Positions 4,419 to 59,128 of a stretch of DNA of 64,000 nucleotides are shown here, in pieces (within the stretch, counting starts at the first letter, position 1; each line of letters begins with the position of its first letter). The stretch covers positions 77,190 to 141,189 of the forward strand of contig JAKSTW010000001.1 in NCBI GenBank assembly GCA_024402405.1, written 5' to 3'. The translations under genes were made by a program, and so were the position numbers. Origin of the DNA: Spirochaetia bacterium (GTDB taxonomy: Bacteria; Spirochaetota; Spirochaetia; CADAEX01). The notes below the pieces were generated by a model. It was not told the DNA's origin, ran no database searches, and saw only the letters and a program-made list of their open reading frames with translations.

Positions 4419-4735
4419 ACAATAATCCTGTCAAAAAAACAGTTTAAACAGTTCCCTGAATTCACGGCGCATTATACCCACAATGCGCTGCCACTGATAT
4501 CCCACATCACCCAGCTTCCTGCTGATACGCATCTTTGCAGTCTTTGAGAATCCGCTGCCGTCAGTATAAACAATGCGTCTTCCGGAACTATTATATTTTG
4601 TTCCCCATGCCGCATCTGTCCTGAAAAGAAGCTCATTACCGTCAGCAGCAGACTTTTCAGAAATAATTCTGTATCCGCAGGTATTGGTGTTGTAAAAGCA
4701 ACATTTTTAACTCAGCAGTTTTCTGAAATACTCAA

Positions 4736-5734
4736 TTACCCCCCCCCTTCACCAACAATCACTTCTTCAGACCATACACTGTCATTCTTGACCATGAGTT
4801 TCTGTTTTCCCTCCAGGGTCTCAGTATAATAGAATCTGTCACTTATATATGCCCAGATATCGTAAGTGCTGTAAATAAAATTATCAACACCCCGGTAATG
4901 ATAGATATCCTCAACCACCAGTTCACGCCTGAATGACAAATCCAGAAGCGGCACACCATCTGTATCAACTTTTTTACCATGCCATTGTGCCACAGTCGGG
5001 AAAATATCCAGCAGAGAGCAGATATTCTGAACTTTATCTACCTGCTTATCGCCCCTGTTATGAATAAACAGCGTTATATTTGTCCGAATAGGACTGACAT
5101 AGGCAAATCTATCACCATTCCTCACATGATCGCCTTTCAGCATACATCCATGATCGGAGAAGATCACAATTTTATCAAAAAAATCATTTCCGACAGCATC
5201 CAGCAGCATATCCATGCATCTGAAAAGATGTTCCTGACCTACAGCATCAGCCTCATCATGGCTTACCACAGAGCCGCAGGAATAAATATCAACAGCATCA
5301 TGATAATCATCAAAACCAGCATAGACACACAGGTCATCATTTCTGTCATTTCCAGCCTTGTCTATGAGAGTCTTATAATCAAAGACGATCTCCGCATAAC
5401 GGTCAAAACCAAATGGAACAATTCCTTCTTTCGGACTGAAAGAATATGGCGAGGCATAATAATAATTTTTATATCCCTCAGATGCCAGGAATTTAAAAAT
5501 ATTATTTTTTTCTGCATCCATAAAATAATATGGCCACTGACCGCACTTTGTGCATCCATTCTCCGCAGGATAGAGACCAGTATAAAAACATGCCATTGCC
5601 CGCGGTGTCTCAGGAGCCGGAGTATAAGCTGATGTATACCAGGTACCTCCCAGACGGCTGAATATCTTATAGACTGCTCCATTCTCAACTTTATCAGGCC
5701 GGAGCATATCACAGAAGAAAAAAAGAATTTTCAT
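4736..5734 (-). CDS. Alkaline-phosphatase-superfamily enzyme, type-I phosphodiesterase/NPP-like (soluble; no signal peptide or TM)
   Basis: 332 aa; ILFFFCDMLRPD resembles the NPP metal-site motif (SFDGFRADY); TGLYPAENG resembles NPP TGLYPESHG; SDHG metal-binding motif present (IVIFSDHGCML). C-terminus ...GEGGG is encoded by a G9 tract that directly abuts the stop codon. Confidence 0.5.
   Translation of the reverse strand: MKILFFFCDMLRPDKVENGAVYKIFSRLGGTWYTSAYTPAPETPRAMACFYTGLYPAENGCTKCGQWPYYFMDAEKNNIFKFLASEGYKNYYYASPYSFSPKEGIVPFGFDRYAEIVFDYKTLIDKAGNDRNDDLCVYAGFDDYHDAVDIYSCGSVVSHDEADAVGQEHLFRCMDMLLDAVGNDFFDKIVIFSDHGCMLKGDHVRNGDRFAYVSPIRTNITLFIHNRGDKQVDKVQNICSLLDIFPTVAQWHGKKVDTDGVPLLDLSFRRELVVEDIYHYRGVDNFIYSTYDIWAYISDRFYYTETLEGKQKLMVKNDSVWSEEVIVGEGGG
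4739..4747. repeat. C9 (G9 on coding strand) homopolymer encoding the terminal Gly residues of CDS 4736..5734, directly abutting its stop codon
   Basis: Seen directly: ...attaCCCCCCCCCttcacc; coding strand reads GGT GAA GGG GGG GGG TAA. Confidence 0.85.
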
Positions 5735-6948
5735 TTACCGCTCCCGGATTTTTTCTTTTTCCAGATAACATTGTTATACATAAACCAATTATATGGCAAT
5801 ACCAGAAATATAACAGAACCTATCATGGAGAGCTGTCTTACCAGCACATTGTCTGCAAATATACGGGTAAAAACGCCTACCACACCAAATTCTATGATGA
5901 TGGCACCCATGGAAGTAAGATTGAATCTCAGAAACCGCAGGAATATATTATCTTTTCTCTGAAAATTCTTCTTCGAGAAAGTCCAGCAGTTGTTCAGAAT
6001 GAAATTACTGCAGATACTGAGCTCTGTAGCCAGACCGGCAGCCCAGGCAGATGCACTGCAGAGAAGCCGACAGTTTTCAATCCGTCCGCGGAACCAGGAA
6101 GCAATGCTCTCACCTGATCCAGCCCGGAAAACCTCAAGGAAAATGGCATTGACCAGAAAACCGATAAACCCGACTATGGCAAATTTCATAAACCTGACAG
6201 TTCCAGGATCTTTCAGACGAAGAAGACACACTGTCTTAAGGATCTCAAAAGGAGTCTGTCCTGTGATTTTTGACACTCCTTCCTCGCGAAGTTTGAAATC
6301 CAGCGGAATCTCTTTGACCTTTGCACCGGCCTTGATTTTCTTAAAGAGCCATTCCAGCTTATAACCGAATCCCCTTGAATATACATGCTCATAATCAACT
6401 TTATTCAGCAGAGTTGTCCTTGTGGCCTTAAGCCCGGTAGTCGGATCCGTGACCTTAAAAAAATCTTTTGTAGGGAAGAACAGGATGACCCGGGCTGTAA
6501 AACCACCGGCTACAGTGAAAAACATCCGTTTGAATCCCCAGGAAGCAGGAAACCCGCCGCCCTTGACCCGTCTGGAACCAAGAATATAGTCATAGCCATT
6601 ATCCAGTTCTTTCAGCAGTAAAGGAATCGTCTCAGGGGGATGCTGGAAATCACCGTCAAATTCAATAACAGCATCTGCACCAAGTTTATCCACAGCATAT
6701 TTAAATCCTTTGATATAGGCTGCGCCGATCCCTTCTTTCTTCTGCTCCACCAGCAGTTCAAGATCGGGATAAGATTTCTGTTTTTCCCTGACCACATCAG
6801 ATGTACCATCAGGTGAATTTCCATCCACCACCAGCACCTTCACATTCCAGCCATCCACCGGTAATATCTTCTGGAAAAGATGATCTGCCATCCTGGCAAT
6901 GGAATCTTTCTCATTATATGTAGGAATAACTATTACTGCTTTTTCCAT
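5731..6948 (-). CDS. Polyprenyl-phosphate glycosyltransferase (GT2, DPM1/ArnC-like) fused to a C-terminal GtrA-like membrane domain
   Basis: 405 aa; N-terminus VIVIPTYNEKDSI...VVDGNSPDGT is GT2 family (DXD); the C-terminal ~120 aa has 4 TM helices typical of GtrA. Confidence 0.6.
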   Translation of the reverse strand: MEKAVIVIPTYNEKDSIARMADHLFQKILPVDGWNVKVLVVDGNSPDGTSDVVREKQKSYPDLELLVEQKKEGIGAAYIKGFKYAVDKLGADAVIEFDGDFQHPPETIPLLLKELDNGYDYILGSRRVKGGGFPASWGFKRMFFTVAGGFTARVILFFPTKDFFKVTDPTTGLKATRTTLLNKVDYEHVYSRGFGYKLEWLFKKIKAGAKVKEIPLDFKLREEGVSKITGQTPFEILKTVCLLRLKDPGTVRFMKFAIVGFIGFLVNAIFLEVFRAGSGESIASWFRGRIENCRLLCSASAWAAGLATELSICSNFILNNCWTFSKKNFQRKDNIFLRFLRFNLTSMGAIIIEFGVVGVFTRIFADNVLVRQLSMIGSVIFLVLPYNWFMYNNVIWKKKKSGSGK

Positions 6949-7907
6949 GTGTACTTCTTATACCAGTCAATAAACTCTTTTATTCCATCCTTCAGATCAA
7001 CAGAAGGGGAATATCCGAAATCAGCTGACAGCCTGGAAACATCTGCAAATGTCTCATGCACATCACCGGCCTGCATCGGCAACATATTCAGGACAGCTTT
7101 TTTTCCCAGTCCCGCCTCGATATATCCTATGAAATCCATAAGTGACTCCGGCTTTCCGCGGCCTATGTTATAAATCCGGTAATTATCCTTTTCCTGGAAA
7201 TCAGAGAATAAAATTCTGACTATACCGGCAACAACATCATCCACATAAGTGAAATCCCGTTTCATATCACCGTAGTTATACACATCAATGGGTTTTCCAG
7301 CTGAAATTTTATCCGCAAATTTAAAGTAAGCCATATCAGGTCTGCCAAAAGGACCATATACAGTGAAAAAGCGGAGTCCCACTGTTTTCAGACTGTACAT
7401 ATCAGAATATACGTGTGCCATGAGTTCATTAGCTTTTTTGGTGGCAGCATAGAGACTAACAGGGCTTTCTGTCTTCTGATCCTCAGAAAATGGCTGCACA
7501 TCATTGCCACCATAGACACTGGAACTGCTGGCATAAACCAGCGGACATTTATGATGATGGGCAATTCCCTCCAGAAGATTCAGGAAACCATAAACATTGC
7601 TGTCAATGTATGTATATGGATTCTTAATGGAATATCGAACTCCGGCCTGTGCCGCCAGATTGCATACGACATCGAATCTCTCATTCTCAAGAAGTTCAGC
7701 CAGAGCATCTTTTTCTCCCAGATCCATCCTGAAAAAACGGAAATCAGGATTCTGGCTCCGCAGTTCTGACAGTCTGAGATTTTTCAGCTCCACATCGTAG
7801 TAGGAATTCATGTTATCCAATCCCACCACTTCGCAATTCATATCAAAAAGTCTTCTGCAAAGATGGAATCCGATAAATCCAGCAGCACCTGTAACAAGTA
7901 TTTTCAT
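6933..7907 (-). CDS. NAD-dependent UDP-glucuronate 4-epimerase (extended SDR)
   Basis: MKILVTGAAGFIGFHL Rossmann motif; YAATK catalytic motif (SLYAATKKANELMAHVY); 324 aa; strongly resembles Cap1J/WbnF-type UDP-GlcA epimerases; sits near ugd. Confidence 0.65.
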   Translation of the reverse strand: MKILVTGAAGFIGFHLCRRLFDMNCEVVGLDNMNSYYDVELKNLRLSELRSQNPDFRFFRMDLGEKDALAELLENERFDVVCNLAAQAGVRYSIKNPYTYIDSNVYGFLNLLEGIAHHHKCPLVYASSSSVYGGNDVQPFSEDQKTESPVSLYAATKKANELMAHVYSDMYSLKTVGLRFFTVYGPFGRPDMAYFKFADKISAGKPIDVYNYGDMKRDFTYVDDVVAGIVRILFSDFQEKDNYRIYNIGRGKPESLMDFIGYIEAGLGKKAVLNMLPMQAGDVHETFADVSRLSADFGYSPSVDLKDGIKEFIDWYKKYTWKKQ

Positions 7908-9139
7908 ATTGATTCCCTCAAAATCTCTACCAGCTGGCGGGCAGCAACCTCACCTGCATGGCTGAAATTATAAACTTCCTCAGCTTTGATCTTCCGTATT
8001 TTATCACGGCAAACATCAACTCTATCATATTCTTCCCTTATAATTCTGTCCAAAACCGGAATCTCATCGGATGTGACGATCCTGGTTATCTCTCTGCTTT
8101 TCTCCAGATCCCAGACTCTGCCACCATCAACATCCAGCACATCATAACCACCCAGTTCATATTCAGCATTGACCAGGAAAATAGGACGCTCAAAAAGAAA
8201 TGCATAATCAAAAATCACACCGGATATATCGGTCACCATAACATGACTTCTGGCCATACTTGCCGCGGCAGTCCTGTTTCTGTCCAGCTCTATAAGGCTG
8301 TTATCTTTTATCTTGGCCTCCACTGCGGCAATCGTCTCTTTGTCCGAGACATACATCTGGGGATGGGGACGGAAAATGACGCGGATCCCGGCAGAGGAGA
8401 GCACATCTATAATTTTTGTACCATATCTGACGACAGAACTTCGTTCTCCCCAGGCTGGGGCATACAGCACTGTAAGCTCATTTTCCTGGGTCTGTGGAAG
8501 CTTTTTCAGTTCCTCCAGCATATAATCAAAATAAGTGCATCCAGTGTCAAGAAGCCTCTTAGCCCTCTCATGCCTGTTCTTTTCTATACTTCGGATACTC
8601 TCCTTCTGATACGGACCTGTGCACAGCAGAGTGTCGTAATAATCAAAGGCATACATCTCATACATGCCGATATCAGCTACAGCATGAAACAGATGGACAT
8701 ATTCTTTCACATGCTTTGACCGTTTAAGCATATACACATCCAGCTGAGGTGTCGTGGAAACAACAACTTTGGCTTTCAGGCTGTTCATATATGAGATCGT
8801 CATAAGTTCCTTGCCGGGACAGACAGGAACCACATTTTTCAAATCAGAACTGAAGACCGGATCATTTTTATCAGATGTCACAAAGCCATATCTGATGCCA
8901 TATTTATCCAAGGCCCTGAGCACAGGATAAAAAACCTGCCAGTACCGGCTTCCCTCTGACTGGAACACCAGATCAGGAAGCTGCTTCACTGTCCCTTTTT
9001 TCCCCATGAAAACTCTGCTCCGCAGTGAATACCAGAAACCGCGCAAAGCAAATAGCACTGTAGTGGTGATGCCCACAACAGCATAGAGCAGAAGAGAACC
9101 GGTACCAGGATCAAGATAGAGAAGTGAGAAATGCATCAT
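7904..9139 (-). CDS. TagF/TagB-family CDP-alcohol:polyol-phosphate transferase (CDP-glycerol glycerophosphotransferase-like), copy 1
   Basis: 411 aa; N-terminal TM anchor then a GT-B-like domain with FRPHPQ and DYAFL motifs typical of the Glyphos_transf (TagF) family; ATGA overlap with the upstream YidC-AP fusion gene. Confidence 0.65.
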   Translation of the reverse strand: MMHFSLLYLDPGTGSLLLYAVVGITTTVLFALRGFWYSLRSRVFMGKKGTVKQLPDLVFQSEGSRYWQVFYPVLRALDKYGIRYGFVTSDKNDPVFSSDLKNVVPVCPGKELMTISYMNSLKAKVVVSTTPQLDVYMLKRSKHVKEYVHLFHAVADIGMYEMYAFDYYDTLLCTGPYQKESIRSIEKNRHERAKRLLDTGCTYFDYMLEELKKLPQTQENELTVLYAPAWGERSSVVRYGTKIIDVLSSAGIRVIFRPHPQMYVSDKETIAAVEAKIKDNSLIELDRNRTAAASMARSHVMVTDISGVIFDYAFLFERPIFLVNAEYELGGYDVLDVDGGRVWDLEKSREITRIVTSDEIPVLDRIIREEYDRVDVCRDKIRKIKAEEVYNFSHAGEVAARQLVEILRESI

Positions 9140-12000
9140 TTCAGCACCTCCCAGTTCTGCGGATCAAAAATGTTGTCATGAACCTCGTAGATATCAAAAT
9201 CAGCATTGCCAGTCCTCAAAAACTTGGAAGATGAATCATACCGGACAGTAGTTACAATCCTATTATCCGGAATAATCACAGGAATATCATCAACCGCATT
9301 TTTCAAAAACTTTGACGCATCGCTGGAACACATCAGTTTATCGCTTTTCTTTAATTCATCACAAGAAGAAAATTTTTTTACCATAAGAAGAGAATTCAAT
9401 CGACTATTTATTTTAGAGCTAACTAAAGGGTTGTCATTTTCATAATCATTCCCATGATCTGACAACAAAATTATATATGTATTGTCATAAATCCCATTAG
9501 CTTTTAACCAATTACACCATTGAACAAATGACCTAATAAATTCCAAAGCGCTGTAATATGCACTATTTCCTGCATAATAGCTATTTTTATTTTTATCTGG
9601 AAATTTTCCTTCAGCAACAAGAGTTCCATTATCATCAACCCCATATGGGCTGTGTGGAAGGCTGTTATGAAAATATTTAAATGTATTATTTTCTATCTCA
9701 ATATTCGAAATTTCAGGAAGTAACTTCATAAATCCATAATTTTTTAATACATGCTCACGGACAGACCAATATAAAGCAGAAGTTGAAAAAATAAACCAAC
9801 AACTGTCATTATAAATCACTGGTTTCAGGAAATATGGTGAATTCTGAAAAATAGAAAGCATTATAAAAAGATGTCCTTGATTTATCCAATTAACGTTTTT
9901 GCTTCCACTATAGTATTTCTGTTCCCAGATTTTTCCAAAAATATCAGAATCGGTACTGACAGTTCCTTTAAGCGTATCTTTTTCCAAAGATGAAGATCCA
10001 GGATTTACAACAGCAATTGAATAACCATGATTAGAAAAATTATCAAACATAATCCGAGCAGACTCCTGAATAAGTTCGTTACCATTTTTCCCCATTTTAG
10101 TCATGGCTATAGGCAGATACTCTTCTCCGGCAAAAATAGACGGCATGGAACATACTGTTTTCCAAGAAGCTGCAACTGTATTCCTGTACCATGTAAATCC
10201 ACTCAGGATCTGTTCATATTCAGGATTTTCCTCAATAATGCGCTGCATATATCCGCCGGAGAACATATCCGCTACAAACAGCACCACATTCTTGCCAGTT
10301 CTGGAATAGCCGTTTATGACATCATTATCAGCAGGGATCTCAACCAATTCTTTTTCAGGAGGCAGATACATATCCGCAGAACACAGATATTTCACAGTTT
10401 TAATACCTGTAAGTATCAGAAGGCAGCAACATATCACAGCAACCACATTCCTGCACTGAACCAAATAATGCCTGATAAAAACCACTGACAGTACAGAAAG
10501 ACAACCAACAACAAGCAGATCACGTATCAGCAGAAACAATGATCTATCCTCAAGTTTTTCTGCCATGCTAAGCATGGTCTTGTCCAGTTCCCCGTAATTT
10601 CCAGGGAAAATATATCTGTAGACTATCACAGCCATAACAAGGAACATAGAGACTGCGGCCATAGCATGACGTCCGGACTTATCAGCAAAATTAAAAATAA
10701 GGAATGATAAAAGGATCAGACACAGGAATACAGGTATATCTGAAAACAGAAGATTCCATATAGAAATACCAGTCTCAGCAGGAGAAGAGAGAAAAATCTG
10801 AACAGGCCATACCAGGGTCACCAGACCGGCAAGAAACAGGACATTCCAGATATAAAGGCTTTTTATATTTTTATCATCTGTGCGACCCACAATATCTTTT
10901 TTCCCCAGAAGATATGCTGTCGCCATATAGATCAATATATCCGCAGATATGGCTGCAATAAAAATAATTTTCTTCAGAAGAGGGCCATCAGCATCCTGTA
11001 ATTTGAGAATAAAACCTGTCCCTGAAACAGCCAGAAACAGAAGCCCTGAAAAAAGTACTTTCACAAAAGGAGCAATGCTGCTTCTTTTCTGTCTGAAATT
11101 CCGATACCAGCACCACAGAAATATAAATACCAGAATAAAAGCAAGCAATGCTATGCCATAAAACAGATGTTCAAACTGTCTTTTATGAAAGATCAATGCA
11201 CGGCACTGAAAAACAAACAGCAGGAAAACCCCAAGTGCAGTACAGAAACCAGGAGTCAGGCATGTGCATACCTCGTCCTTTATCATTCTGATATAGTCTC
11301 TGAGACCTTTTTCATTTTCGTCAGGCACATACTTCTCGTGAGGGAACAGCCGCAGGAAGATAAGGCTCTTTCCCACAGAAAACACATTGTTCATAGTCCA
11401 GTAGAGAACCAGTGCGGACGGACTTCCATAAAGCAGCAGCAGGAAAACTCCGGCCATTACATACAGTTCCACAATATCACGGAACCGGCTCCCCTTCATG
11501 TAGATGCTGGAAGAGACAATGTTTATCAGGGTCATCGCTACCGGAAGGGCGTTGATACCGAATATAAGCCCATCTGGTCTGGCAAAGTCATTTATGAACC
11601 ACCAGCTGACACCTCTGTATGGCTCATAATGGCTCAGAAGATGATACGCAGCAAAGAAAAAAGGTATCTGTATCAGCAGTCCGAAAGATGTTCTGAATGA
11701 CGATGCGGCAGTATATCCCTCCAGCCGGTGAGTAGCTTTGGTAAGACAATACCGTTTCTGACCGCTATAGTATTTCTTGATATGATCAAGCCGCCGCTTC
11801 ATACGTTTTTCCACAGCCTGTTCCTTGCGTTTCCACACCTCTGCTATGTAGAACAGCGGAAACATTATTATTGTGACACTGAGGCTGAGAAGTATGATGG
11901 AGACACCGAAATTTCCGGTCAGTTTCACATAACTGCAGAACAGGAAACTCAGAACAGTCTCTATCGGTCTGATTATGATCAGATATATAAATTTCAGCAT
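9136..12000 (-). CDS. Large membrane protein: YidC/Oxa1-like insertase core (N-term) + extra TM segments + alkaline-phosphatase-superfamily (LtaS/sulfatase-like) ectodomain, copy 1
   Basis: 954 aa. Residues ~25-215 align by eye with Bacillus SpoIIIJ/YidC: NFGVSIILLSLSVTIIMFPL, CL..LIQIPFFFAAYHLL, ALVLYWTMNNVFSVG. The YidC groove Arg is replaced by Thr. The central region has >=6 further TM helices. The C-terminus has NVVLFVADMFSGG and IILLSDHGNDYEN metal-site motifs. The protein ends ...NWEVLK. Confidence 0.6.
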   Translation of the reverse strand: MLKFIYLIIIRPIETVLSFLFCSYVKLTGNFGVSIILLSLSVTIIMFPLFYIAEVWKRKEQAVEKRMKRRLDHIKKYYSGQKRYCLTKATHRLEGYTAASSFRTSFGLLIQIPFFFAAYHLLSHYEPYRGVSWWFINDFARPDGLIFGINALPVAMTLINIVSSSIYMKGSRFRDIVELYVMAGVFLLLLYGSPSALVLYWTMNNVFSVGKSLIFLRLFPHEKYVPDENEKGLRDYIRMIKDEVCTCLTPGFCTALGVFLLFVFQCRALIFHKRQFEHLFYGIALLAFILVFIFLWCWYRNFRQKRSSIAPFVKVLFSGLLFLAVSGTGFILKLQDADGPLLKKIIFIAAISADILIYMATAYLLGKKDIVGRTDDKNIKSLYIWNVLFLAGLVTLVWPVQIFLSSPAETGISIWNLLFSDIPVFLCLILLSFLIFNFADKSGRHAMAAVSMFLVMAVIVYRYIFPGNYGELDKTMLSMAEKLEDRSLFLLIRDLLVVGCLSVLSVVFIRHYLVQCRNVVAVICCCLLILTGIKTVKYLCSADMYLPPEKELVEIPADNDVINGYSRTGKNVVLFVADMFSGGYMQRIIEENPEYEQILSGFTWYRNTVAASWKTVCSMPSIFAGEEYLPIAMTKMGKNGNELIQESARIMFDNFSNHGYSIAVVNPGSSSLEKDTLKGTVSTDSDIFGKIWEQKYYSGSKNVNWINQGHLFIMLSIFQNSPYFLKPVIYNDSCWFIFSTSALYWSVREHVLKNYGFMKLLPEISNIEIENNTFKYFHNSLPHSPYGVDDNGTLVAEGKFPDKNKNSYYAGNSAYYSALEFIRSFVQWCNWLKANGIYDNTYIILLSDHGNDYENDNPLVSSKINSRLNSLLMVKKFSSCDELKKSDKLMCSSDASKFLKNAVDDIPVIIPDNRIVTTVRYDSSSKFLRTGNADFDIYEVHDNIFDPQNWEVLK

Positions 12001-12004
12001 GAGA

Positions 12005-12448
12005 TTATGGTCTTACAACATCTCCATTGACGATCTTTATGACCTGGGTCGTGGAAATGCCCTGTGTACGAGGAACCACGATCACACGCCCCTGCCTGTA
12101 CAGATGACCGAACCAGTATTTCACATATTCCATATCATCTGCGGCAATGAAAAGAGCATCTATTCTGTACTTATCCATAAAATCATTGACTGCCTTCTCA
12201 TCATAGGCATGAGGTCCCCAGCTGCGGTCCACAATAACTGCATCATCCACATATCTGCAGGATCTGATTATTTCCAGCCGCTCTTCCTGAGAGAATATCG
12301 GTCTTCTTTTTTCCTGTTCTGTGAGAGCATCGGAATCAATGGTAGCCACAACTTCTCTGAACATTTCCTTGGCCCGTTTAAGGAGCCTCACATGACCTAC
12401 ATGAAAAAGGTCAAAAACTCCATTCACAGCACATCTGTCGTATTTCAT
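12005..12448 (-). CDS. tagD: Glycerol-3-phosphate cytidylyltransferase (GCT/TagD family; CDP-glycerol synthesis)
   Basis: 147 aa; GVFDLFHVGHVRLL (HxGH), RYVDDAVIV and PRTQGISTT motifs match TagD/GCT-family cytidylyltransferases. Confidence 0.65.
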   Translation of the reverse strand: MKYDRCAVNGVFDLFHVGHVRLLKRAKEMFREVVATIDSDALTEQEKRRPIFSQEERLEIIRSCRYVDDAVIVDRSWGPHAYDEKAVNDFMDKYRIDALFIAADDMEYVKYWFGHLYRQGRVIVVPRTQGISTTQVIKIVNGDVVRP

Positions 12449-16195: not shown

Positions 16196-16897
16196 ATGTC
16201 CATAATAAAACTGGAAAATGTAATAAAATCATATCCACTGGGAAAAACCATGGTCACAGCCATCAAGGGCGTTTCCTTTGAGATCGCGGAAGGAGATTTC
16301 GCATCCATCATCGGTCCTTCAGGCAGCGGTAAATCAACCATTCTGAATATGATAGGATGCATCGATGTCCCGACAGAAGGAAAAGTCATCATCAATGGAC
16401 AGACAACCACCGGACTTACAGACAGAGAGATCACAAACCTCCGTCATGACGTGCTTGGATTCATATTCCAGTCTTTCAACCTGCTGCCGGTCCTCAATGT
16501 ATATGAGAACATTGAATTTCCATTTTTGATCAGCAGGAAAAAATATTCTGCAGCAGAAAAAAAAGAGCAGAAAGAATATATAGACCACCTTATCGACGCT
16601 GTAGGACTTTCACAGTGGATCACCCACAAACCGGCTGAACTTTCAGGAGGTCAGCGTCAGCGTGTAGCCATAGCCAGAGCACTGGCAACAAAACCAAAAG
16701 TTGTCCTGGCCGACGAGCCGACAGCCAATCTTGACAGCAAGACAGGTGAGGATATCATCGCGCTGATGAAAAAGATCAACAAAGAGATAAAAACAACCTT
16801 TGTTTTCTCCACTCATGACAAAAATATCTTTTCCATAGCCGATCATGTCATCAGACTGAAAGACGGCATCGTTGCAGAAGATTTCAGACAGAATTAA
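16196..16897 (+). CDS. ABC transporter ATP-binding protein (LolD/MacB/FtsE-type)
   Basis: 233 aa; Walker A GPSGSGKST, signature LSGGQRQRVAIARAL, Walker B VVLADEPT. Confidence 0.85.
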   Translation: MSIIKLENVIKSYPLGKTMVTAIKGVSFEIAEGDFASIIGPSGSGKSTILNMIGCIDVPTEGKVIINGQTTTGLTDREITNLRHDVLGFIFQSFNLLPVLNVYENIEFPFLISRKKYSAAEKKEQKEYIDHLIDAVGLSQWITHKPAELSGGQRQRVAIARALATKPKVVLADEPTANLDSKTGEDIIALMKKINKEIKTTFVFSTHDKNIFSIADHVIRLKDGIVAEDFRQN

Positions 16898-18087
16898 AAT
16901 TTAGAAGTAAGCTCGATAAACAAAGTGAATCCCAGTTTGGTCTTGATAGGAAATTCCTCGTAGAAGTCCTTATCCAACTCTTTGTCACCATAATTCCATG
17001 GAACGGCAAATCTGAATTTTATATGCTTCCATGGTGATATGGTCAGTCCTGCTATAAACTGCCCTGACTCTGTCTGCATAGAATGAAGCCATTTGAGACC
17101 AAATCCTACAGGACTTCCGAACAGATTGTCCACGGAAGTGGCCAGACCAAAACAGTTATCCAGCTCATTCTTATCACGGCCATCAAAATAATATTCACCA
17201 TATAATTTTATACGCTGGCTCTCGTTGGGTTTAGACCACTCTTTATAAAAACCGGCCAGAGCCTCATAAGTCGTCTCCCCATCATAGTTTATGATCCCAT
17301 CGGCCAAAAAATCAGTACCGAAAACAACTGTCTTTATGGAACCCAGAAACCGCTGTCCATCCTCTCTGTTACTGGTGGCAGCAAATGTGAAATTTATATC
17401 TCCGATAGTCTTATCCACTTTTCCGGCATAGGTCAGATCATCACGCCGGAGCTTCTTCACAGGATTGCTCTTATGTCTGTTTTTGTAGAGTATTACAAGA
17501 GAAACACCGTCCAGCATATTCGGAAAAGAAGCACGCAGAGAAGTTCCGTCCTCGCAGTCATCCATAAAATCGCCAGGTCTGAACAGTCGTCCCTGTCCCC
17601 ACTTCATATAACACTTTCCGAAACGGAAGAAAGCCATGTCTTTCAGATTGTAATCACACCAGAGCTCATCGGCCTCTATGTCTCCCCAGGTATCATTTCC
17701 CTTGTCAGACTCCAGCTCAGTCTGGAGCTTACCAAACAGCTGCAGGGTAGGATCAGGAGTGATATCAAAAGTAACATATGCTTTTGAATAGGCTCCTGCT
17801 TCTTTTTCAGGTTTAGACTGGAGAGGCTTTTCATCCCATCCGATACCACCACCGCCGCGCATCAGCAGATACCCTCCGATACGAACTTTGTCACTTTTCT
17901 CAGCCTGCTGTTTGTAATCAATATCGACAGGCTTCTCTATGACAACATCTTCCTGTGGATCTTCAAAAATTGAGTCAAAGGCTTCCTGCAGCTCATTGCC
18001 TTCTTCTGCGGACAATACAAGTCCACACAGAAAAAAAATCAGAGAAAGCCATAATTTCAACAGTCGAAAATTCTTTCTATCAGCCAT
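16894..18087 (-). CDS. Secreted protein, putative outer-membrane beta-barrel (C-terminal Phe)
   Basis: 397 aa; N-terminal signal peptide (LWLSLIFFLCGLVLSAEE); alternating amphipathic pattern in C-terminal half, ends ...IELTSKF (terminal aromatic typical of OMPs). Family not recognised. Confidence 0.4.
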   Translation of the reverse strand: MADRKNFRLLKLWLSLIFFLCGLVLSAEEGNELQEAFDSIFEDPQEDVVIEKPVDIDYKQQAEKSDKVRIGGYLLMRGGGGIGWDEKPLQSKPEKEAGAYSKAYVTFDITPDPTLQLFGKLQTELESDKGNDTWGDIEADELWCDYNLKDMAFFRFGKCYMKWGQGRLFRPGDFMDDCEDGTSLRASFPNMLDGVSLVILYKNRHKSNPVKKLRRDDLTYAGKVDKTIGDINFTFAATSNREDGQRFLGSIKTVVFGTDFLADGIINYDGETTYEALAGFYKEWSKPNESQRIKLYGEYYFDGRDKNELDNCFGLATSVDNLFGSPVGFGLKWLHSMQTESGQFIAGLTISPWKHIKFRFAVPWNYGDKELDKDFYEEFPIKTKLGFTLFIELTSKF

Positions 18088-18862
18088 TAGTCCTGTTTAT
18101 TCTCTCCAGATATTCCTTAGTATACAGAGAATCAGGCTGCTTGTTAAGAGAAGGATCTTTAATTGTAACTGTTGTACGCTCATAGATCTTCTTTCCCTCA
18201 ACCTCTCTGAACACCATATGATCCTGGATCATTATAGTGGCAGGAATCCAACGGCTGTTCACCTGTTGATAACTCGGAATGGCAGAAGATCTCATAAGCT
18301 GGTTGGAAAGGCTGTAATCCTCAATTTTTCTGACCAGATTATCTTCAGAGACCCAGATTTTTTCCCGAGGGAAAGATACTGAATTGGTGTTTGCCTTCAG
18401 ATCAAAGACCTTGCAGTTGAACTTACCCAACTTTTCCTCTGTCACAGAGACGATATCATAATTTTTTGCATAATCGGATCCTGTAAAATCTGAAAGTCGG
18501 AATCCGGAATTCTCAAATCGTTCCTTGGCACTTGTAAAAGTAAAACACTTGCCCACCGGATCATAAAGCCAGAGATTCTTACCAAGCTTGAGATATCCTT
18601 TTCCCTTGTCAGCTGAAGGCTGCAGGATCAGGATCAGAAACTGCTCGGACTTATCCCTTCGGAACATGGCTGCAACAGTTGTGGAAGCAGAACCGTTAGG
18701 ATCTTTTTTCACTATAGTATATTCTGCCGCCAGATCTGATTCCTCAAAATTTACCAGCTCATCAACTTTTCTCAGAATTTCCCTATCACTATCTGCAGCA
18801 AAAGCAGAAAACAAAATACATCCCATCAACAAAACTGCAATAATTAATTTTTTCATTTTCAA
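18080..18862 (-). CDS. LolA-like outer-membrane lipoprotein-sorting family protein
   Basis: 260 aa with signal peptide (MKMKKLIIAVLLMGCILFSAFA); ~250-aa periplasmic protein. Resembles the outer membrane lipoprotein-sorting protein family that co-occurs with FtsX-type permeases and a LolD-like ATPase. Confidence 0.5.
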   Translation of the reverse strand: MKMKKLIIAVLLMGCILFSAFAADSDREILRKVDELVNFEESDLAAEYTIVKKDPNGSASTTVAAMFRRDKSEQFLILILQPSADKGKGYLKLGKNLWLYDPVGKCFTFTSAKERFENSGFRLSDFTGSDYAKNYDIVSVTEEKLGKFNCKVFDLKANTNSVSFPREKIWVSEDNLVRKIEDYSLSNQLMRSSAIPSYQQVNSRWIPATIMIQDHMVFREVEGKKIYERTTVTIKDPSLNKQPDSLYTKEYLERINRTNG

Positions 18863-20148
18863 TCCTTTCTCAATGCTTCTGCCGGCGGCATCAGTGATGC
18901 CTTTTTGGCAGGTCCATAAGCTGCGGCCACCACAGCCACAATCATAAACAGCAGATTAAGGAATACAGTCCTGACACTTATAAAGTGCTGCAGATGTCCA
19001 TTCTCAGTGAACATTCCTGCCACAGATATTCCCTTTAAATCAAACAACCCGATCCCCCAGAAAGTTACAAGTCCCAGGAAGAACCCAGCCGCAGAGGCAA
19101 CCACGGCCAGCGCCGCCGCCTCATACAGAAAAATGCGCTTCACATCTCCAGCCTGCATTCCTATGGCCCTCATGGTTCCAATCTCTCTGGTCCGCTCATA
19201 GATCAGCACTCGGTATGTATTCAATATACCCATCATTACGATAAGAAGGAATACCACCAGAACAAAATATGTGCAGACAAGGAAAGCATCCAGAAGATTC
19301 TTCAGCTGCTCCAGCTGTGCCTCCACAGACATCACACCGACCTTCTCATTATCATTATTCCGGTTCGAGCTTCTGAAATCACTGAAATCTTTCCTTGAAA
19401 GTATCGGAGGGAAAACGTCATGATCCTCCGCAAATTTCATACGCAGTTTTTCTGTAAGCTTCGGTATGTCTGATCCCTCTTTAGTATATACGGCAATCTC
19501 GGTAGCCCAGTCTTCCGGCATATTCATCAAAGCATTCAAATCTGTGCGGTTCATATAAGCCGCATATCCGAATATACTGGTCTCATCAAAAATACCTTTG
19601 ACGACCATATAGGCCATATTATACTGACCGCTGATAGTCTTCAGATACAGGATCACATCATCACCAAGCCGGGCACCCAGCAGCCGGGCAGTCTCAGTGC
19701 TTATTATGATTCCGTTGCGTCCGTCCTCCCCTTTCATGCTGTCAATTCCACCGGCTACAAATGGGAGCTTCTCCAGTTCATTTCCCTCACTGTCAAAATC
19801 AGCACCTATCACTCTGAGCAGACGAAGGTAACTGCCGCCGAAGAAAATACGCACTTCCTTTCCATAATAAATGGTTCTAGGTGAAACTGTGCGGAAATGA
19901 ATCCCGGACTCATGGACTGTATCAAGAAAATCCTGGGTATTCTTAATTGAAAATCCTGTATTCTCAAATCCCTGGACTATTATATGACCTGAAAAATACC
20001 TGGCGGCCTTGGTCTTGATGGTCTCCAGCGCACCATAGGAAAGTCCTGTAAGCACTGTGATAAGCGCAAAACCTATGGCAATAGCCACCCCCATCAGTGC
20101 ATAACGTTTTCTCTGGAGGAAAAGATTCCTTAAAGCAAATCTGAACAC
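18859..20148 (-). CDS. ABC transporter permease, FtsX/MacB/LolCE family
   Basis: 429 aa; N-terminal TM, large periplasmic domain, C-terminal FtsX 3-TM bundle; MFRFALRNLFLQRKRYALMGVAIAIG is the classic family start. Confidence 0.75.
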   Translation of the reverse strand: MFRFALRNLFLQRKRYALMGVAIAIGFALITVLTGLSYGALETIKTKAARYFSGHIIVQGFENTGFSIKNTQDFLDTVHESGIHFRTVSPRTIYYGKEVRIFFGGSYLRLLRVIGADFDSEGNELEKLPFVAGGIDSMKGEDGRNGIIISTETARLLGARLGDDVILYLKTISGQYNMAYMVVKGIFDETSIFGYAAYMNRTDLNALMNMPEDWATEIAVYTKEGSDIPKLTEKLRMKFAEDHDVFPPILSRKDFSDFRSSNRNNDNEKVGVMSVEAQLEQLKNLLDAFLVCTYFVLVVFLLIVMMGILNTYRVLIYERTREIGTMRAIGMQAGDVKRIFLYEAAALAVVASAAGFFLGLVTFWGIGLFDLKGISVAGMFTENGHLQHFISVRTVFLNLLFMIVAVVAAAYGPAKKASLMPPAEALRKD

Positions 20149-21603
20149 TCACAGCCTCCCCATTATAGCCACAGGCTGAATCTTCACAGCTACGGAAACA
20201 GGATAGATCCAGGATAAAGCACCGATTATGGCAGCTCCTCCAAGATGCAGCAGGATATTTTTCAAAGTAACTGCAGGAACCAGCATATCTCCACCGAACA
20301 TAGTGATCAGCAGAGTGTTGTGCAGCTCAATACCACCTGAAAAAGCCATGGAAATAATTATTCCCAGAATGATACCGACTACAGCTGCAACCATCGTCAG
20401 GAGCATAGACTCCGCAATGAAAAGGGCACTGATAAATGGCTTGCCGGCACCGATACCTCTCATGGTACCTATCTCATAACTTCTTTCCAGAACAGAGATC
20501 ATGAGGGCATTCATAATAACAAGAACAGCCCCTATAATGATAAATACGATACCCACATTAAATGCTGCCTGAAGGGCAAACACCATCTGAGCGCTGAGCC
20601 CTGCACCCTGCCTCCAGCTCCGCACATTGACAGACAGCTTATTTTCCGCATCAAGATTCCGCAGTTCCTTCATCAGCTGCCCGCGCTCTCCGTCAGCAGC
20701 CCTGAAAAGCACATAGCTCCAGGCATTGGAAGCTTCTGCCGACATGGCATCCCGTTCTGCAGTATCAGCCAGCAGAGCTTCTATGAAATCAAGGGAAAGT
20801 GCATTGCTGTCTTCCTCAACCACATCGGATGCATCATCAAAAAGATCATCCATATCAAAATCATCAGAAACTGCTCCGCTGTCTCCGGTATCTCCGCTGT
20901 CAATAATATTTCCGGCAGTATAATCAATCAGTCCTCTGACAATAGAAGGATCGGCCAGTACTATGGCATCAAACGGAGCAACCCGATTCACATATCTGTG
21001 ACATCCGGCAAAAACGCCTTTGCGGATCTTAAAACTGCCATTGGAATAAAGGCTGAGTTTCAGATCCTCACCTATGGCGATCTTTCTATTAAGTTTCCTC
21101 TCAATTTTCCGCAGCAACGGCTGGCACAGGAATATTCCGCCATTGGAAATATCTGAAGGATCTCCCTTCACTATCTCAATGGCAGAACACACATTGAAAT
21201 AACTTTCCGGAACTATTCCGAATACAGCCGCAGCCGAGCGGAAATCACCGATTTCCACAGCTGCAGCCGCAGATACTACAGGACTGTAAGATTCCGCATA
21301 CTGCAGACTGCCAAGCATCGGCTCTATTTCCGAATATCCCATAATAGACGGAATGACTTCATAATCATCCACCACCGGTATTTCATTGCCGAACAGACTG
21401 AAAGAAGATTCAGTGGCAGCTCCCATCACAACATCACCGGTAAGGCTGCTGACAAATGAATCTTCCACCCCTTTATTAGCACTGGCAAAAATTGCATTGG
21501 CAAAAAACAGGAATGCCATGCCCACTGCAATCAGAGTCCCCAGAAGCAGAGTTTTTCGAGTATTTCTTCTTAAATTACGTAAAGCAAGCTTTAAAATAAG
21601 CAT
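20149..21603 (-). CDS. ABC transporter permease, FtsX/MacB/LolCE family (second)
   Basis: 484 aa; MLILKLALRNLRRNTRKTLLLGTLIAVGMAF start, Asp/Ser-rich periplasmic insert, C-terminal FtsX domain. Confidence 0.75.
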   Translation of the reverse strand: MLILKLALRNLRRNTRKTLLLGTLIAVGMAFLFFANAIFASANKGVEDSFVSSLTGDVVMGAATESSFSLFGNEIPVVDDYEVIPSIMGYSEIEPMLGSLQYAESYSPVVSAAAAVEIGDFRSAAAVFGIVPESYFNVCSAIEIVKGDPSDISNGGIFLCQPLLRKIERKLNRKIAIGEDLKLSLYSNGSFKIRKGVFAGCHRYVNRVAPFDAIVLADPSIVRGLIDYTAGNIIDSGDTGDSGAVSDDFDMDDLFDDASDVVEEDSNALSLDFIEALLADTAERDAMSAEASNAWSYVLFRAADGERGQLMKELRNLDAENKLSVNVRSWRQGAGLSAQMVFALQAAFNVGIVFIIIGAVLVIMNALMISVLERSYEIGTMRGIGAGKPFISALFIAESMLLTMVAAVVGIILGIIISMAFSGGIELHNTLLITMFGGDMLVPAVTLKNILLHLGGAAIIGALSWIYPVSVAVKIQPVAIMGRL

Positions 21604-22460
21604 TTATACTGTCTGCAAAATTCCTCATAATCCTCATAAGGGGATGTATAAGTATAAATCTGATAATACGGACGGTTAGTCCAGTATCCATACAAATCAC
21701 ATTTCTCAGGAAAACTCTTATCCGGAAATGCCTCTTTTTTCAGAGTAAGAACAGGACATCTTTTCTCACCTACAAAAAACTCCTCAGGGATAGTTCTGCA
21801 GAGCAGATCTGAGACTTTGTTTATCCTTTCTCTGAACTGATCCAGGTCAAAGTTCTTGAGCACCTTATGGAAATGCTCATAGATATATGTAGGTGTGGTG
21901 TATGGAGTCTGGTTCTTATCTCCCCAATCCTTGAAAATGCGCAGGTTGAGATATGAGATCTTATCACTGTCCACGCAATATTTCCACTGGTCTTTCTTGA
22001 CACATACCACAGCCAGTCCTGTATAAGACCCCAGCTGCTTATTCAGGCAAGTGCAGAAGATCCTTGTATTCTTAGGTGTGGAATAATATGGAAACGCACT
22101 TACAGCATCAAGAACACATCCTTCTTTATAAAAAGGAGCGGAGACACTGCTCTCAAGACGGCAGCACAGATCCACATCAGGGCAGCCTGCCGGTTTAGGA
22201 TAATTCTCCAGCATACTGGTCCACCGTTTTTTGAAAGATCCGTCATTGCCGATGACAGTTATATTATAGTTCATGGAGAACATAACAGCCTCCACACCAA
22301 CTGTGGCACTGCCAGGAATGAAAATCACATCATAATCATCAAGATCGAATTTTTTGATGAAAAGCTCTTTTACCTCGCCAAAAAGCTTATAGAAAGCCTG
22401 ATCTCTGTGAGATCCATTGATAACTACATTATCAGTAAAATATGTGTTTGGCCCGAACAT
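21591..22460 (-). CDS. Hypothetical protein; N-terminal half resembles the class-V (AGXT/PhnW-like) aminotransferase fold but is short and lacks an obvious PLP-lysine motif
   Basis: 289 aa; DDYDVIFIPGSATVGVEAVMFSM...VIGNDGSFKKRW resembles ...GSGTFAVEAVI...NGAFGERW of AEP/serine-pyruvate transaminases; similarity judged by eye only. Confidence 0.25.
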   Translation of the reverse strand: MFGPNTYFTDNVVINGSHRDQAFYKLFGEVKELFIKKFDLDDYDVIFIPGSATVGVEAVMFSMNYNITVIGNDGSFKKRWTSMLENYPKPAGCPDVDLCCRLESSVSAPFYKEGCVLDAVSAFPYYSTPKNTRIFCTCLNKQLGSYTGLAVVCVKKDQWKYCVDSDKISYLNLRIFKDWGDKNQTPYTTPTYIYEHFHKVLKNFDLDQFRERINKVSDLLCRTIPEEFFVGEKRCPVLTLKKEAFPDKSFPEKCDLYGYWTNRPYYQIYTYTSPYEDYEEFCRQYKCLF

Positions 22461-22469
22461 AACATCCTC

Positions 22470-23699
22470 TTATCTCTGGTTGACTTCCTGCTGAACCTTC
22501 ACCAGAAAATCCACAATGCTCTTTCCGGCACAGCCTCTGTTCTGCCATGCCTGCTCCTTGGCATCTATCCGGTTCTGTTCAGACTGACGGCTGTCAGTAA
22601 CTTTTTTTATTATATCACCAATACAGGCGAAATCTTCTTCTCTCAGTTCATATCCTATCTTCGGCAGAATCTGGAACTGCCATAACTGGTGCGGCACTTT
22701 TCCGGCATCATAAGGTCGCGGATCAAATTCTCCCACAGCAGATAAAAACGGTTTTCCACGCAGGAACGCATAATCAAGCGTAATACTGGAAAAATCAGAA
22801 ATCATTATATCAGCTTTTGCAAGAGAAACAATATTATCAGGCTCAAAATCCCAGCTGAAATCAGGATTATCCCTATACCGATCCTGCAGCCGCTCCAACA
22901 TCTCCCGTTCCACCTGCTTTGACTGAGGATGAGGCCGGACGATCACTTTGTATCCGGTAAGAGCCAGCGCATCCAGCAGTTTCTCGCCGTACATGGAGAG
23001 AAGCCCGCTTTTACCCCAGGATGGTGAGACCAGAACTGTGAACGGATGCTCAGCAGGAATATGATCCCTGATCTTCTCAGCCAGCACATCCAGATATGGG
23101 GAACCCACTGTCACCAATCTTTTCGCCGGCAGTCCACGCAGCTTCTCAAGATAGCGGATATCCTCTTTCTGATAATCTCCTGAGAGAAGTACAGAATCAA
23201 AATAATCCAGACCATACCGCTTATACAGCGTGGCATCATTCACCATATGAAGCACATGACAGTAATGGCTTACACCTTTGGAACGCTTCAGCTGAAAGAC
23301 ATCCAGCCCAGGAGTAGTCATCAGGCATACATCAGCCTCCAGAAGATTCAGTCTGGCAAAAGCCCTGTTTCCAGCACCTATGAACTCAGGTCTCACATGC
23401 TCCCATTTCCGGTCAAACACCAGATCATCCTCAGCTGAGGTATAATAAACCACATCAATATGTCTGTTTTCAAACTCTTCCAGTACCGGACGGAATGTAT
23501 TCCAATACTGTTTTCCCTCGCTGTAGATCACAAATGGAAGTTTTGTTGTCTTTACAACATATTTCTTTCCGGCAAAGAAAATCTTTATTTTTATCCAGAC
23601 TGCCCGGAGTCCGAAGAACGCCAGCGCAAACAGGCTGATGATCACAGAGAACAGCATGCTTCCAGTACCTGGATCTATATAGAGGAACGGCACTGTCAT
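22470..23699 (-). CDS. TagF/TagB-family CDP-alcohol:polyol-phosphate transferase, copy 2 (paralogue of 7904..9139)
   Basis: 409 aa; same N-terminus (MTVPFLYIDPGTGS vs MMHFSLLYLDPGTGS), RPHPQ motif, DYAFL motif; ATGA overlap with upstream YidC-AP fusion copy 2. Confidence 0.65.
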   Translation of the reverse strand: MTVPFLYIDPGTGSMLFSVIISLFALAFFGLRAVWIKIKIFFAGKKYVVKTTKLPFVIYSEGKQYWNTFRPVLEEFENRHIDVVYYTSAEDDLVFDRKWEHVRPEFIGAGNRAFARLNLLEADVCLMTTPGLDVFQLKRSKGVSHYCHVLHMVNDATLYKRYGLDYFDSVLLSGDYQKEDIRYLEKLRGLPAKRLVTVGSPYLDVLAEKIRDHIPAEHPFTVLVSPSWGKSGLLSMYGEKLLDALALTGYKVIVRPHPQSKQVEREMLERLQDRYRDNPDFSWDFEPDNIVSLAKADIMISDFSSITLDYAFLRGKPFLSAVGEFDPRPYDAGKVPHQLWQFQILPKIGYELREEDFACIGDIIKKVTDSRQSEQNRIDAKEQAWQNRGCAGKSIVDFLVKVQQEVNQR

Positions 23700-28516: not shown

Positions 28517-28523
28517 ACAAACC

Positions 28524-30577: not shown

Positions 30578-30594
30578 TAAGAAAATAACCCTTT

Positions 30595-30629
30595 GTGTAA
30601 AATATAAAGTTGGACTTTATATTTTACAC
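30595..30629. promoter_or_regulatory. Perfect 15-bp inverted repeat GTGTAAAATATAAAG-ttgga-CTTTATATTTTACAC, 18-52 nt upstream of the DUF4143 ATPase start
   Basis: Seen directly; located in the 136-bp gap between the SDR stop (30714) and the ATPase ATG (30577). Could be an operator or a weak intra-operon hairpin/attenuator. Confidence 0.4.
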
Positions 30630-30713
30630 GCCATAATCTTACAATATCACTTAGCAACATTAAACGCAAGTCAGCTAAAGGAAGAAATAAGATCCCTCTC
30701 GTGGTGTAAATCT

Positions 30714-32440: not shown

Positions 32441-32444
32441 CGGA

Positions 32445-33794: not shown

Positions 33795-33818
33795 TCCAAT
33801 TATGATCCTAAAGTATAA

Positions 33819-43217: not shown

Positions 43218-43251
43218 ATTTACCTCAATATATTATTCATTTCTTCCGATA

Positions 43252-46087: not shown

Positions 46088-46214
46088 GAAAATTTCATTT
46101 TATAAAAGCAAAACGCCGCCGCAACAGGCTGTTTCCCAGAATAAAATGTTGTTCAAAGATAGAACAAGTTTATATCATTCTGCGAGGTTTTGCAATGAAA
46201 AAAGAAAATTTTAT

Positions 46215-48326: not shown

Positions 48327-48406
48327 TGAATTTATAATGTTCCAACCCTGATCTATATCCTTTGAGAGATAGGTACAATCACAGAAACATCGATAGCACC
48401 CATATA

Positions 48407-56320: not shown

Positions 56321-56376
56321 CTATTGAAAAATTTTCAATTGCTCTATATTCTAACTTTATAAATAAGGAGTCAGAT

Positions 56377-56604: not shown

Positions 56605-56607
56605 AGC

Positions 56608-56623
56608 TGTTTCACGTGAAACA
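56608..56623. promoter_or_regulatory. parS: parS centromere site, perfect 16-bp palindrome TGTTTCACGTGAAACA
   Basis: Exact match to the ParB-binding parS consensus; lies 4 nt after the nfu stop and ~290 bp from parA. Confidence 0.85.
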
Positions 56624-56626
56624 AAA

Positions 56627-59119: not shown

Positions 59120-59128
59120 ATCGTATCC

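Follow-up and report, generated by a model that had tools for sequence, protein, structure and literature searches.

A YidC-like module without the groove arginine, fused to a putative alkaline-phosphatase-fold transferase and linked to a TagF-like partner in spirochaete glycan loci

YidC/Oxa1 proteins are regarded as universal membrane protein insertases with a strictly conserved groove arginine. This residue is present in the YidC/Oxa1/Alb3 insertases, such as YidC2 of B. halodurans (PDB 3wo7) and YidC of E. coli, and YidC insertases end in a ribosome-binding C-terminal tail. In a 64-kb stretch of DNA from a Spirochaetia bacterium (contig JAKSTW010000001.1, positions 77,190 to 141,189, hereafter the window), we analysed the gene FUS1, whose product joins a YidC-like module to an enzyme domain of the alkaline phosphatase (AP) fold. 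We use FUS as the name for this family of YidC-like/AP-fold fusions, of which the window holds two copies, FUS1 and FUS2. The family counts thousands of proteins without the arginine, which carry T, N or S at its site, and in place of the ribosome-binding tail they have nine more transmembrane (TM) helices and the enzyme domain. Unlike the genes of YidC insertases, FUS genes are multi-copy, accessory and situated in glycan loci.

The enzyme half of FUS resembles a second group of described proteins. GacH/SccH and LtaS/LtaP share with it a polytopic membrane domain at the N-terminus and an AP-fold domain outside the cytoplasm, and the likeness extends to a Thr nucleophile with an acidic residue, a D-H metal site and a phosphate-binding His. 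GacH, a many-TM (11 TM) AP-type glycerol-phosphate (GroP) transferase that decorates a cell-wall polysaccharide (10.1101/337519), is the nearest functional precedent for FUS. The likeness to EptA, MCR-1, EptC and PbgA (YejM) lies in the nucleophile motif, which aligned with 'TAVSVPCMF' of EptA, and in a periplasmic active site that faces the membrane. However, these proteins have five TM helices, compared with fourteen in FUS, and no YidC module; the EptA-type enzymes act on lipid A or the lipopolysaccharide (LPS) core with phosphatidylethanolamine (PE), and PbgA is a non-catalytic LPS sensor. FUS fails the charged groove that defines YidC, and it carries a module found in no described AP-type transferase.

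FUS1 (9136..12000, minus strand) encodes 954 aa in a single ATG-started open reading frame (ORF) with no stop inside. The YidC-like module (aa 1-218; 11347..12000, minus strand) comprises an N-terminal helix, five TM helices and a cytoplasmic coiled-coil hairpin. It is followed by a linker and nine TM helices (aa 219-540; 10381..11346, minus strand), assigned from hydropathy and from the helices at 250-540 of an AlphaFold2 (AF2) model, which form the fastest-evolving region, and then by the predicted periplasmic AP-superfamily domain (aa 541-954 plus the stop codon; 9136..10380, minus strand). In Pfam searches, aa 31-215 matched 60KD_IMP (PF02096) with 82.6 bits, well above the gathering cutoff of 35, over positions 1-161 of the 163 in the profile, and aa 570-859 matched Sulfatase (PF00884) with 39 bits against a cutoff of 25. 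An earlier note on this DNA had read by eye a YidC core, at least six further TM helices and an AP-type ectodomain. This reading held, with nine extra helices, and the profile search suggested there for the N-terminal region returned PF02096 above its curated cutoff and nearly at full length. The NCBIfam matches of FUS1 were all YidC models (TIGR03592 scored 79.4, slightly under its cutoff of 84.3), apart from a weak match to LtaS (20.6 bits against a cutoff of 970).

The AF2 model of FUS1 reached a predicted local distance difference test score (pLDDT) of 90.8 and a predicted template modelling score (pTM) of 0.78. The five-TM core fold of YidC is present, with its cytoplasmic helical hairpin between TM1 and TM2, and the best full-length structural matches found by Foldseek were MCR-1, EptA and PbgA. 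FUS1 has the layout of an AP-type transferase, with a polytopic N-terminal membrane domain and then an extracytoplasmic AP-fold domain. Its topology was deduced from hydropathy and loop charge: the loop charges of the nine TM helices obey the positive-inside rule, as expected for an outward-facing C-terminus, so we place the catalytic domain in the periplasm. FUS2 (23696..26269, minus strand), an 857-aa paralogue, has the same architecture with LDR and SDHG motifs and scored 70.6 bits with 60KD_IMP and 24.7 bits with Sulfatase. The two copies are 39% identical in the YidC-like module and 24% in the C-terminal part, and their middle regions are unalignable. FUS is a genuine YidC fold joined to a putative transferase of the EptA/LtaS/GacH type.

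FUS1 is 100% identical to an NCBI protein of a Spirochaetia metagenome-assembled genome named 'YidC/Oxa1 family membrane protein insertase', the label that databases give to the family. Among the scored candidates, 1,224 matches were full-length homologues (850-1,050 aa) that contain the two Pfam domains together, and an exhaustive hidden Markov model search returned 3,931 FUS representatives of 50%-identity clusters at E<=1e-30. Species-representative genomes, some of them complete, contained at least 510 confirmed loci with the unbroken architecture, and the complete genomes of Treponema denticola and T. putidum carry it. Most members belong to Treponema and other Spirochaetia, and scattered ones to Desulfovibrionaceae, Sutterellaceae, Lachnospiraceae, Anaerovoracaceae, Coriobacteriia and Bacteroidota. 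Recurrence across hundreds of independent assemblies shows that the fusion is genuine. The worry of the earlier note, that two genes had been joined by a frameshift or mis-assembly, is ruled out by this recurrence in independent and complete genomes, and two uninterrupted copies lie within the window itself. Our literature searches found no paper describing the fusion or the partner described below, in agreement with the note's statement that it knew of no such family, and a targeted look at a 2009 phylogenomic survey of YidC found no mention of the fusion. FUS is nevertheless a large family.

Three apparent versions of the enzyme without a YidC module (P0055, P0056 and a 796-aa neighbour labelled 'Sulfatase' only) had to be rejected. 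These 'sulfatase-only' homologues of about 780 aa are gene-calling truncations, because their open frames run upstream into complete YidC modules. On two metagenome contigs (L162 and L163), the public calls choose a late start, which cuts FUS to a 'Sulfatase' of about 780 aa, and a spurious antisense ORF of 119-123 aa is called over the YidC-coding part. Such truncation is a systematic annotation error for the family, and mis-annotation as a 'YidC insertase' or a cut-down 'sulfatase' affects both genome annotation and essential-gene inference. Some members deviate in size, with the YidC module remaining N-terminal in all of them: P0180 (1247 aa) ends in an NPCBM carbohydrate-binding module, as would suit an acceptor that is a glycan, whereas P0208 and P0247 (about 1230 aa) have a greatly enlarged middle TM region. 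Contig L162 also contains two tandem FUS genes (4531..10328) with identical YidC-module translations at the N-terminus and differing downstream regions, a uniformity that could reflect gene conversion or very recent duplication.

In the alignment to solved YidCs, T43 of FUS1 (codon 11872..11874, minus strand) coincided with R366 of E. coli YidC and with the T. maritima Arg, and W201 (codon 11398..11400, minus strand) with E. coli Y517, the equivalent of W234 in S. mutans YidC2. FUS2 has S42 at the arginine site, so the substitutions proposed for the two copies (Thr here, Ser in the paralogue) were correctly read. We then consulted two overlapping sets of sequences. In the 84-sequence FUS alignment the site is T in 54, N in 22 and S in 7, with one gap; among the 204 FUS ORFs collected from loci of genomes and metagenomes, T occupies it in 90, N in 62 and S in 52. 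Neither set contains R or K at this position. The charged-groove Arg by which YidC/Oxa1/Alb3 proteins are recognised is missing throughout, and no conserved K/R was seen within the TM helices of the module across the aligned FUS sequences. The Y517-equivalent position was Trp in all 201 scorable ORFs.

The groove arginine has been described as strictly conserved in all YidC homologues; it is dispensable if the Y517-equivalent residue is polar and required if that residue is Trp or apolar, and S. mutans YidC2, with Trp at 234, is inactive without it (PMC8920935). Given the S. mutans result, a Trp without the Arg argues against canonical insertase activity in FUS, and the residue pattern favours a module that is not a canonical insertase. 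The earlier note had drawn this view from the loss of Arg; the invariant W201 adds to it, whereas polar residues next to this Trp may tell in the other direction. N160, T202 and N204, the family-specific invariant polar residues of the module, keep the groove hydrophilic and could compensate for the missing Arg. The cytoplasmic coiled-coil hairpin is also kept, with conserved K/R residues. Mean pairwise identity in the FUS alignment is 0.52 in the YidC core, 0.32 in the ectodomain and 0.20 in the middle TM region, and columns conserved at 90% or more number 44/185 in the core compared with 3/295 in the middle region. Judged by these values, the YidC-like module is the best-conserved part of FUS, which indicates strong selection for some function.

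The ectodomain has retained a complete set of putative catalytic residues, all encoded on the minus strand. D578 (10267..10269), in the sequence VADMF after strand beta1, is a putative metal ligand; T615 (10156..10158), in a T-x-x-S-x-P-x-[ILM]-[FL] motif, is the putative catalytic nucleophile; and D848-H849 (9454..9459), in the SDHG motif aligned to 'GDH' of LtaS, are predicted metal ligands. All four are invariant in 84/84 sequences, which substantiates the AP-superfamily domain with an SDHG metal motif that had been noticed earlier, and N571, N840, K875 and D894 are likewise invariant. H783 (9652..9654) aligned to the His of LtaS 'NHFPF' and is H in 83/84. GroP is bound by H347 and R356 in LtaS and by H580, R589 and N586 in GacH. 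The FUS set of D578, T615, D848 and H849 parallels the catalytic sets of LtaS (E255, T300, D475, H476) and GacH (E488, T530, D711, H712) (10.1101/337519). FUS therefore has, at the sequence level, the Thr nucleophile, acidic metal ligand and D-H pair of AP-type transferases.

In a profile-sequence alignment with hhalign (E=1.9e-4, probability 48%), T615 fell on the Thr of the E. coli EptA motif 'GTATAVSVPCMF', which we take to hold the catalytic Thr of phosphoethanolamine (PEtN) transferases. In the AF2 model, T615 forms the N-terminus of helix 615-624 after a beta-strand, and D848-H849 come after strand 841-846; as modelled, this placement conforms to the canonical geometry of the AP superfamily. 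Searched by sequence against the PDB, the ectodomain matched LtaS enzymes best, with alignments that cover the C-terminal half of LtaS only. A sulfatase function is ruled out on motif grounds: the formylglycine motif of S1 sulfatases (C/S-x-P-x-R) is absent, since the column of its Arg (622) is always I/L/M/V in the 84-sequence alignment. A further AP-superfamily protein of 332 aa is encoded in the glycan locus at 4736..5734 (minus strand), with 44 bits for Pfam Sulfatase and CDMLRPD and FSDHG motifs. It is probably cytoplasmic because it has no signal peptide or TM helix. The suggestion that it is a soluble paralogue of the ectodomain found no support (BLASTP E=0.85), and we regard it as an independent cytoplasmic AP-superfamily protein with no detectable kinship.

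Each FUS gene of the window is followed by a gene for a TagF-like enzyme, here called the partner. Partner 1 (7904..9139, minus strand) is a 411-aa membrane-anchored GT-B enzyme of the Glyphos_transf family, and partner 2 (22470..23699, minus strand) is its counterpart behind FUS2. In both cassettes the partner ATG overlaps the FUS stop (ATGA), and an identical sequence resembling a ribosome-binding site, GGGAGGTG, lies slightly upstream. The two partners scored 39.5 (partner 1) and 33.8 bits with Glyphos_transf against a cutoff of 22.1, and PF04464 was recorded for 120/120 of the partner homologues listed. The AF2 model of partner 1 (pLDDT 84) has a GT-B fold, and Foldseek matched it to 8qoy, a TagF-like capsule polymerase, among several GT-B enzymes. 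A PDB sequence search with the partner protein gave no match, and NCBIfam offered no equivalog for it, the best match being TarF with 16 bits. The partner shares with TagF/TagB/TarF and the capsule polymerases (PDB 8qoy) the Glyphos_transf domain, the GT-B fold and conserved His and Arg residues, as well as a TagD-like cytidylyltransferase in the same operon. The latter gene (12005..12448, minus strand) lies directly upstream of FUS1 and matched Pfam CTP_transf_like with 75.5 bits.

Unlike TagF/TagB/TarF, the partner carries an invariant Y(I/L)DPGTGS motif on its probable N-out TM anchor and nearly always stands beside FUS. The motif reads YLDPGTGS in partner 1 (9095..9118, minus strand), at the outer end of the single TM helix, and YIDPGTGS in partner 2. 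Y8, D10 and P11 are invariant, and G12-S15 are at least 90% conserved. When all ORFs of at least 100 aa in the first 80 loci (L001-L080) and the window were examined, the motif was found in 51/59 TagF-like ORFs and was absent from all others. The partner begins with a short acidic N-tail, followed by one TM helix and a K/R-rich flank, and some copies carry a signal-peptide-like extension ending in AFA right before the motif; together these features indicate an N-out, C-in topology. This single-helix topology is that of the Pf3 coat protein, a classic YidC client.

For the analysis of gene linkage, we regarded FUS loci as well flanked when they had at least 4 kb on both sides, and partner loci when they had at least 3.5 kb. 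A partner was present in 51/81 FUS loci (21/30 of the well-flanked ones), and 50/134 FUS genes directly abut a partner gene. Viewed from the partner side, in metagenomes, FUS was present in 64/80 loci and adjacent in 56/80, and 23 of the 25 well-flanked partner loci carried it. Tandem arrays of 2-6 FUS genes are common, and several such loci hold one partner gene only. Identity among 85 adjacent cassettes is 0.49 in the YidC core, 0.41 in the partner, 0.28 in the ectodomain and 0.18 in the middle TM region; by this measure the YidC core and the partner evolve slowly, and the ectodomain and the middle TM region fast. As gene order has it, FUS and the membrane-anchored TagF-like partner form a cassette, which is new here.

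Building on the architecture, fold, residue conservation and gene linkage described above, we infer a two-enzyme trans-membrane relay that would put a phospho-polyol onto glycans, with an exapted YidC module that would handle a lipid-linked donor, the partner anchor or both. We give this mechanism, including its substrate, the direction in which it runs and whatever the groove contributes, a probability of roughly 40%. FUS would face the periplasm as an AP-superfamily enzyme that transfers phospho-alcohols in the manner of EptA, LtaS and GacH; Thr615 would be its nucleophile, D578, D848 and H849 would bind the metal, and it would decorate a surface glycan or glycolipid once this has been exported. 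The enzyme would be seated on a membrane platform of 14 helices, the first five of which would be the exapted Arg-less YidC module. It would act as a unit with the translationally coupled TagF-like enzyme, which would use a CDP-activated alcohol and whose catalytic domain would be cytoplasmic, held by a Pf3-coat-like N-out anchor bearing the Y(I/L)DPGTGS motif. In such a relay, the TagD-like and TagF-like enzymes would build a lipid-linked phospho-polyol donor, most likely GroP-based, at the inner leaflet; the YidC-type groove, polar but uncharged and perhaps occupied by the partner anchor, would carry the donor head group across the membrane; and Thr615 would accept the phospho-alcohol and hand it to the exported glycan. 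The slow-evolving YidC-like module and TagF-like partner would handle a common donor, and the choice of acceptor would fall to the fast-evolving parts, the nine TM helices and the ectodomain. Shared donor modules combined with variable acceptor modules would explain arrays of several FUS genes with as few as one partner.

The GtrA/GtrB/GtrC and ArnC/ArnEF/ArnT systems consist of a cytoplasmic donor-maker, a small membrane flipping module and a variable polytopic transferase outside. By analogy, the proposed relay would follow the same logic, and one donor-maker (GtrB) can serve several transferases (GtrC). Those systems handle sugars on undecaprenyl phosphate and use GT-C transferases, whereas FUS would transfer a phospho-alcohol by an AP-fold enzyme; unlike in Gtr and Arn, the putative flipping module of FUS is YidC-derived and fused to the transferase. 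Lipid scrambling by YidC and further members of the Oxa1 family has been shown both in vitro and in silico (PMC11047089), which makes a lipid-handling role of the YidC fold in FUS credible. The earlier note had speculated that the groove presents a lipid-linked polyol-phosphate; the tight TagF-like linkage and the published scrambling by YidC (PMC11047089) make this more plausible now, and, with TagD-like and TagF-like genes linked to FUS, a CDP-derived donor becomes an alternative to a phospholipid head group. The specific proposal that the Arg-less module is an insertase turned lipid-head-group translocator, maybe also a receptor for the partner anchor, in a three-step pathway in which the TagF-like enzyme would charge a membrane carrier with the CDP-derived phospho-polyol, the groove would flip it and the fused transferase would attach it to glycans outside, is tentative and on balance rather doubtful.

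Several points weigh against the relay. To our knowledge, every characterised membrane AP-type transferase draws its phospho-alcohol from bulk phospholipid, either phosphatidylglycerol (PG) or PE, and we know of no TagF-family enzyme that makes lipid donors, the known ones phosphorylating sugar or alditol hydroxyls. The TagD-like gene does not establish the alcohol, because its best NCBIfam match, glycerol-3-phosphate cytidylyltransferase with 69.9 bits, is below the equivalog cutoff of 165.4. No partner is within reach in 9/30 well-flanked FUS loci (about 30%), the residue at the Arg site (T/N/S) showed no covariation with partner motif subtype or gene order, and gene linkage alone is no proof of physical or metabolic coupling. 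An ectodomain that takes GroP or PEtN from outer-leaflet PG or PE, as LtaS, GacH and EptA do, would suit the partnerless loci, the PG or PE use of all characterised relatives and the full-length structural matches to MCR-1, EptA and PbgA. The YidC-like module would then be a built-in scramblase that resupplies the donor lipid and returns diacylglycerol, much as E. coli YidC scrambles glycerophospholipids (PMC11047089), and the TagF-like enzyme would perform a separate cytoplasmic step on the same glycan. We consider such a scheme unlikely, since it leaves unexplained the linkage to FUS in 23/25 loci, the translational coupling of DPGTGS-type partners and the invariant motif of their anchor. 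LtaS, EptA and GacH moreover function without a scramblase module, and a housekeeping YidC, presumably present in the same genomes, already scrambles lipids.

The groove and greasy slide could instead bind or insert the N-out anchor of the partner and handle no lipid at all, the module being a dedicated insertase or a TM-helix receptor that unites the cytoplasmic TagF-like enzyme with the periplasmic transferase. This would agree with a partner topology typical of YidC-only clients (acidic N-tail, one TM helix, K/R-rich cytoplasmic flank, with the AFA-ending extensions of some copies), with an anchor motif that is invariant and exclusive to the partner, with the retained coiled-coil hairpin and its conserved K/R, and with the slow evolution of just these two components. 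Yet the groove has lost the positive charge that canonical YidC uses on acidic N-tails, though the Asp of the partner is invariant; the absence of covariation between groove residue and anchor subtype and the FUS loci that have no adjacent partner also speak against it, and we judge this docking role improbable. Less probable still is a module that only aids the insertion and folding of its own 14-TM protein or persists as a structural leftover. YidC is an established chaperone of polytopic proteins, and the pTM of 0.78 suggests that the module packs within one bundle. However, a relic would be expected to decay and a self-chaperone to retain the canonical groove, whereas the module is the most conserved region (44/185 columns vs 3/295), with invariant polar N160, T202 and N204 and a systematic change from Arg to T, N or S, and EptA, LtaS and GacH need no such module.

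FUS keeps a YidC fold under strong selection and ties it to a glycan-modifying enzyme and a cytoplasmic partner. The almost constant TagF-like neighbour suggests that an insertase fold has been re-used for building cell-surface glycans, and the tandem arrays, with their fast-evolving ectodomains, may help to diversify surface antigens. If the module handles a lipid or the partner helix, the family would be a natural experiment that separates the insertase from the scramblase function of the Oxa1 fold. The proposed relay, if true, would be a new mechanism of surface-glycan decoration; a translocating groove in particular would make it the equivalent, for phospho-polyols, of what Gtr and Arn do for sugars, and would give the scramblase activity of an Oxa1-superfamily fold its first role in vivo. 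FUS is abundant in Treponema; T. denticola, a periodontal pathogen in which the biosynthesis of outer-membrane glycolipid is largely uncharted, has four copies. In locus L001 of T. denticola (CP051634.1, 1309411-1332254), four FUS and two TagF-like genes form one array, which adjoins dTDP-rhamnose-type genes and hisS. A Pfam Sulfatase match was recorded in 0/4 of these FUS copies; the copy included in the family alignment (P0078) retains the catalytic residues. T. denticola is a genetically tractable host of such an array.

The window carries a glycan locus, about 50 kb long, beside the replication origin. The locus is Wzx-type, with a Bac_transf initiating transferase, two Wzx-like flippases and many glycosyltransferases, and it also contains three LicD genes, a Stealth gene, CDP-ribitol-type genes and an ABC-2 transporter. 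Between the two FUS cassettes (16196..21603) lie a MacB-type ABC transporter and a LolA_like/TP_0789-like protein. The MacB-type unit has two FtsX/MacB_PCD permeases and an ATPase on the opposite strand, and contig L163 shows the same synteny; this unit may be an export route of glycolipid or lipoprotein to the outer membrane. Right downstream of partner 2, a 289-aa protein (21591..22460, minus strand) resembles 2-aminoethylphosphonate and phosphoserine aminotransferases weakly in NCBIfam, with 34.6 bits and thus far short of the cutoff. The second cassette may accordingly involve phosphonate or amino-alcohol chemistry.

Further genes for phospho-substituent chemistry were found at 27050..34844, namely a B12-binding radical SAM enzyme, LicD (three in the window), IspD-like and SDR genes of the CDP-ribitol type and a Stealth hexose-1-phosphotransferase; beyond this group, at 46215..48410, a CotH kinase-like protein is encoded. 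Two proteins inside the locus are non-glycan in appearance, an AAA_14/DUF4143 ATPase (29351..30577) and a Schlafen-AlbA_2/HATPase_c_4/Fic-like_C protein (32445..33794), and could be defence or regulatory insertions. GC content falls to 0.33-0.36 at 33000..48000, compared with 0.42-0.45 elsewhere; this segment spans the GT2, Wzx and ABC-2 transporter part, and its low GC suggests a horizontally exchanged variable segment. At the right end of the window (54697..62777) lies the chromosomal origin region, with dnaA on the plus strand and gyrB, gyrA and parA/parB on the minus strand. The GC skew flips sign within the last 2 kb of the window, and the whole glycan locus is co-oriented with replication, leading away from the origin.

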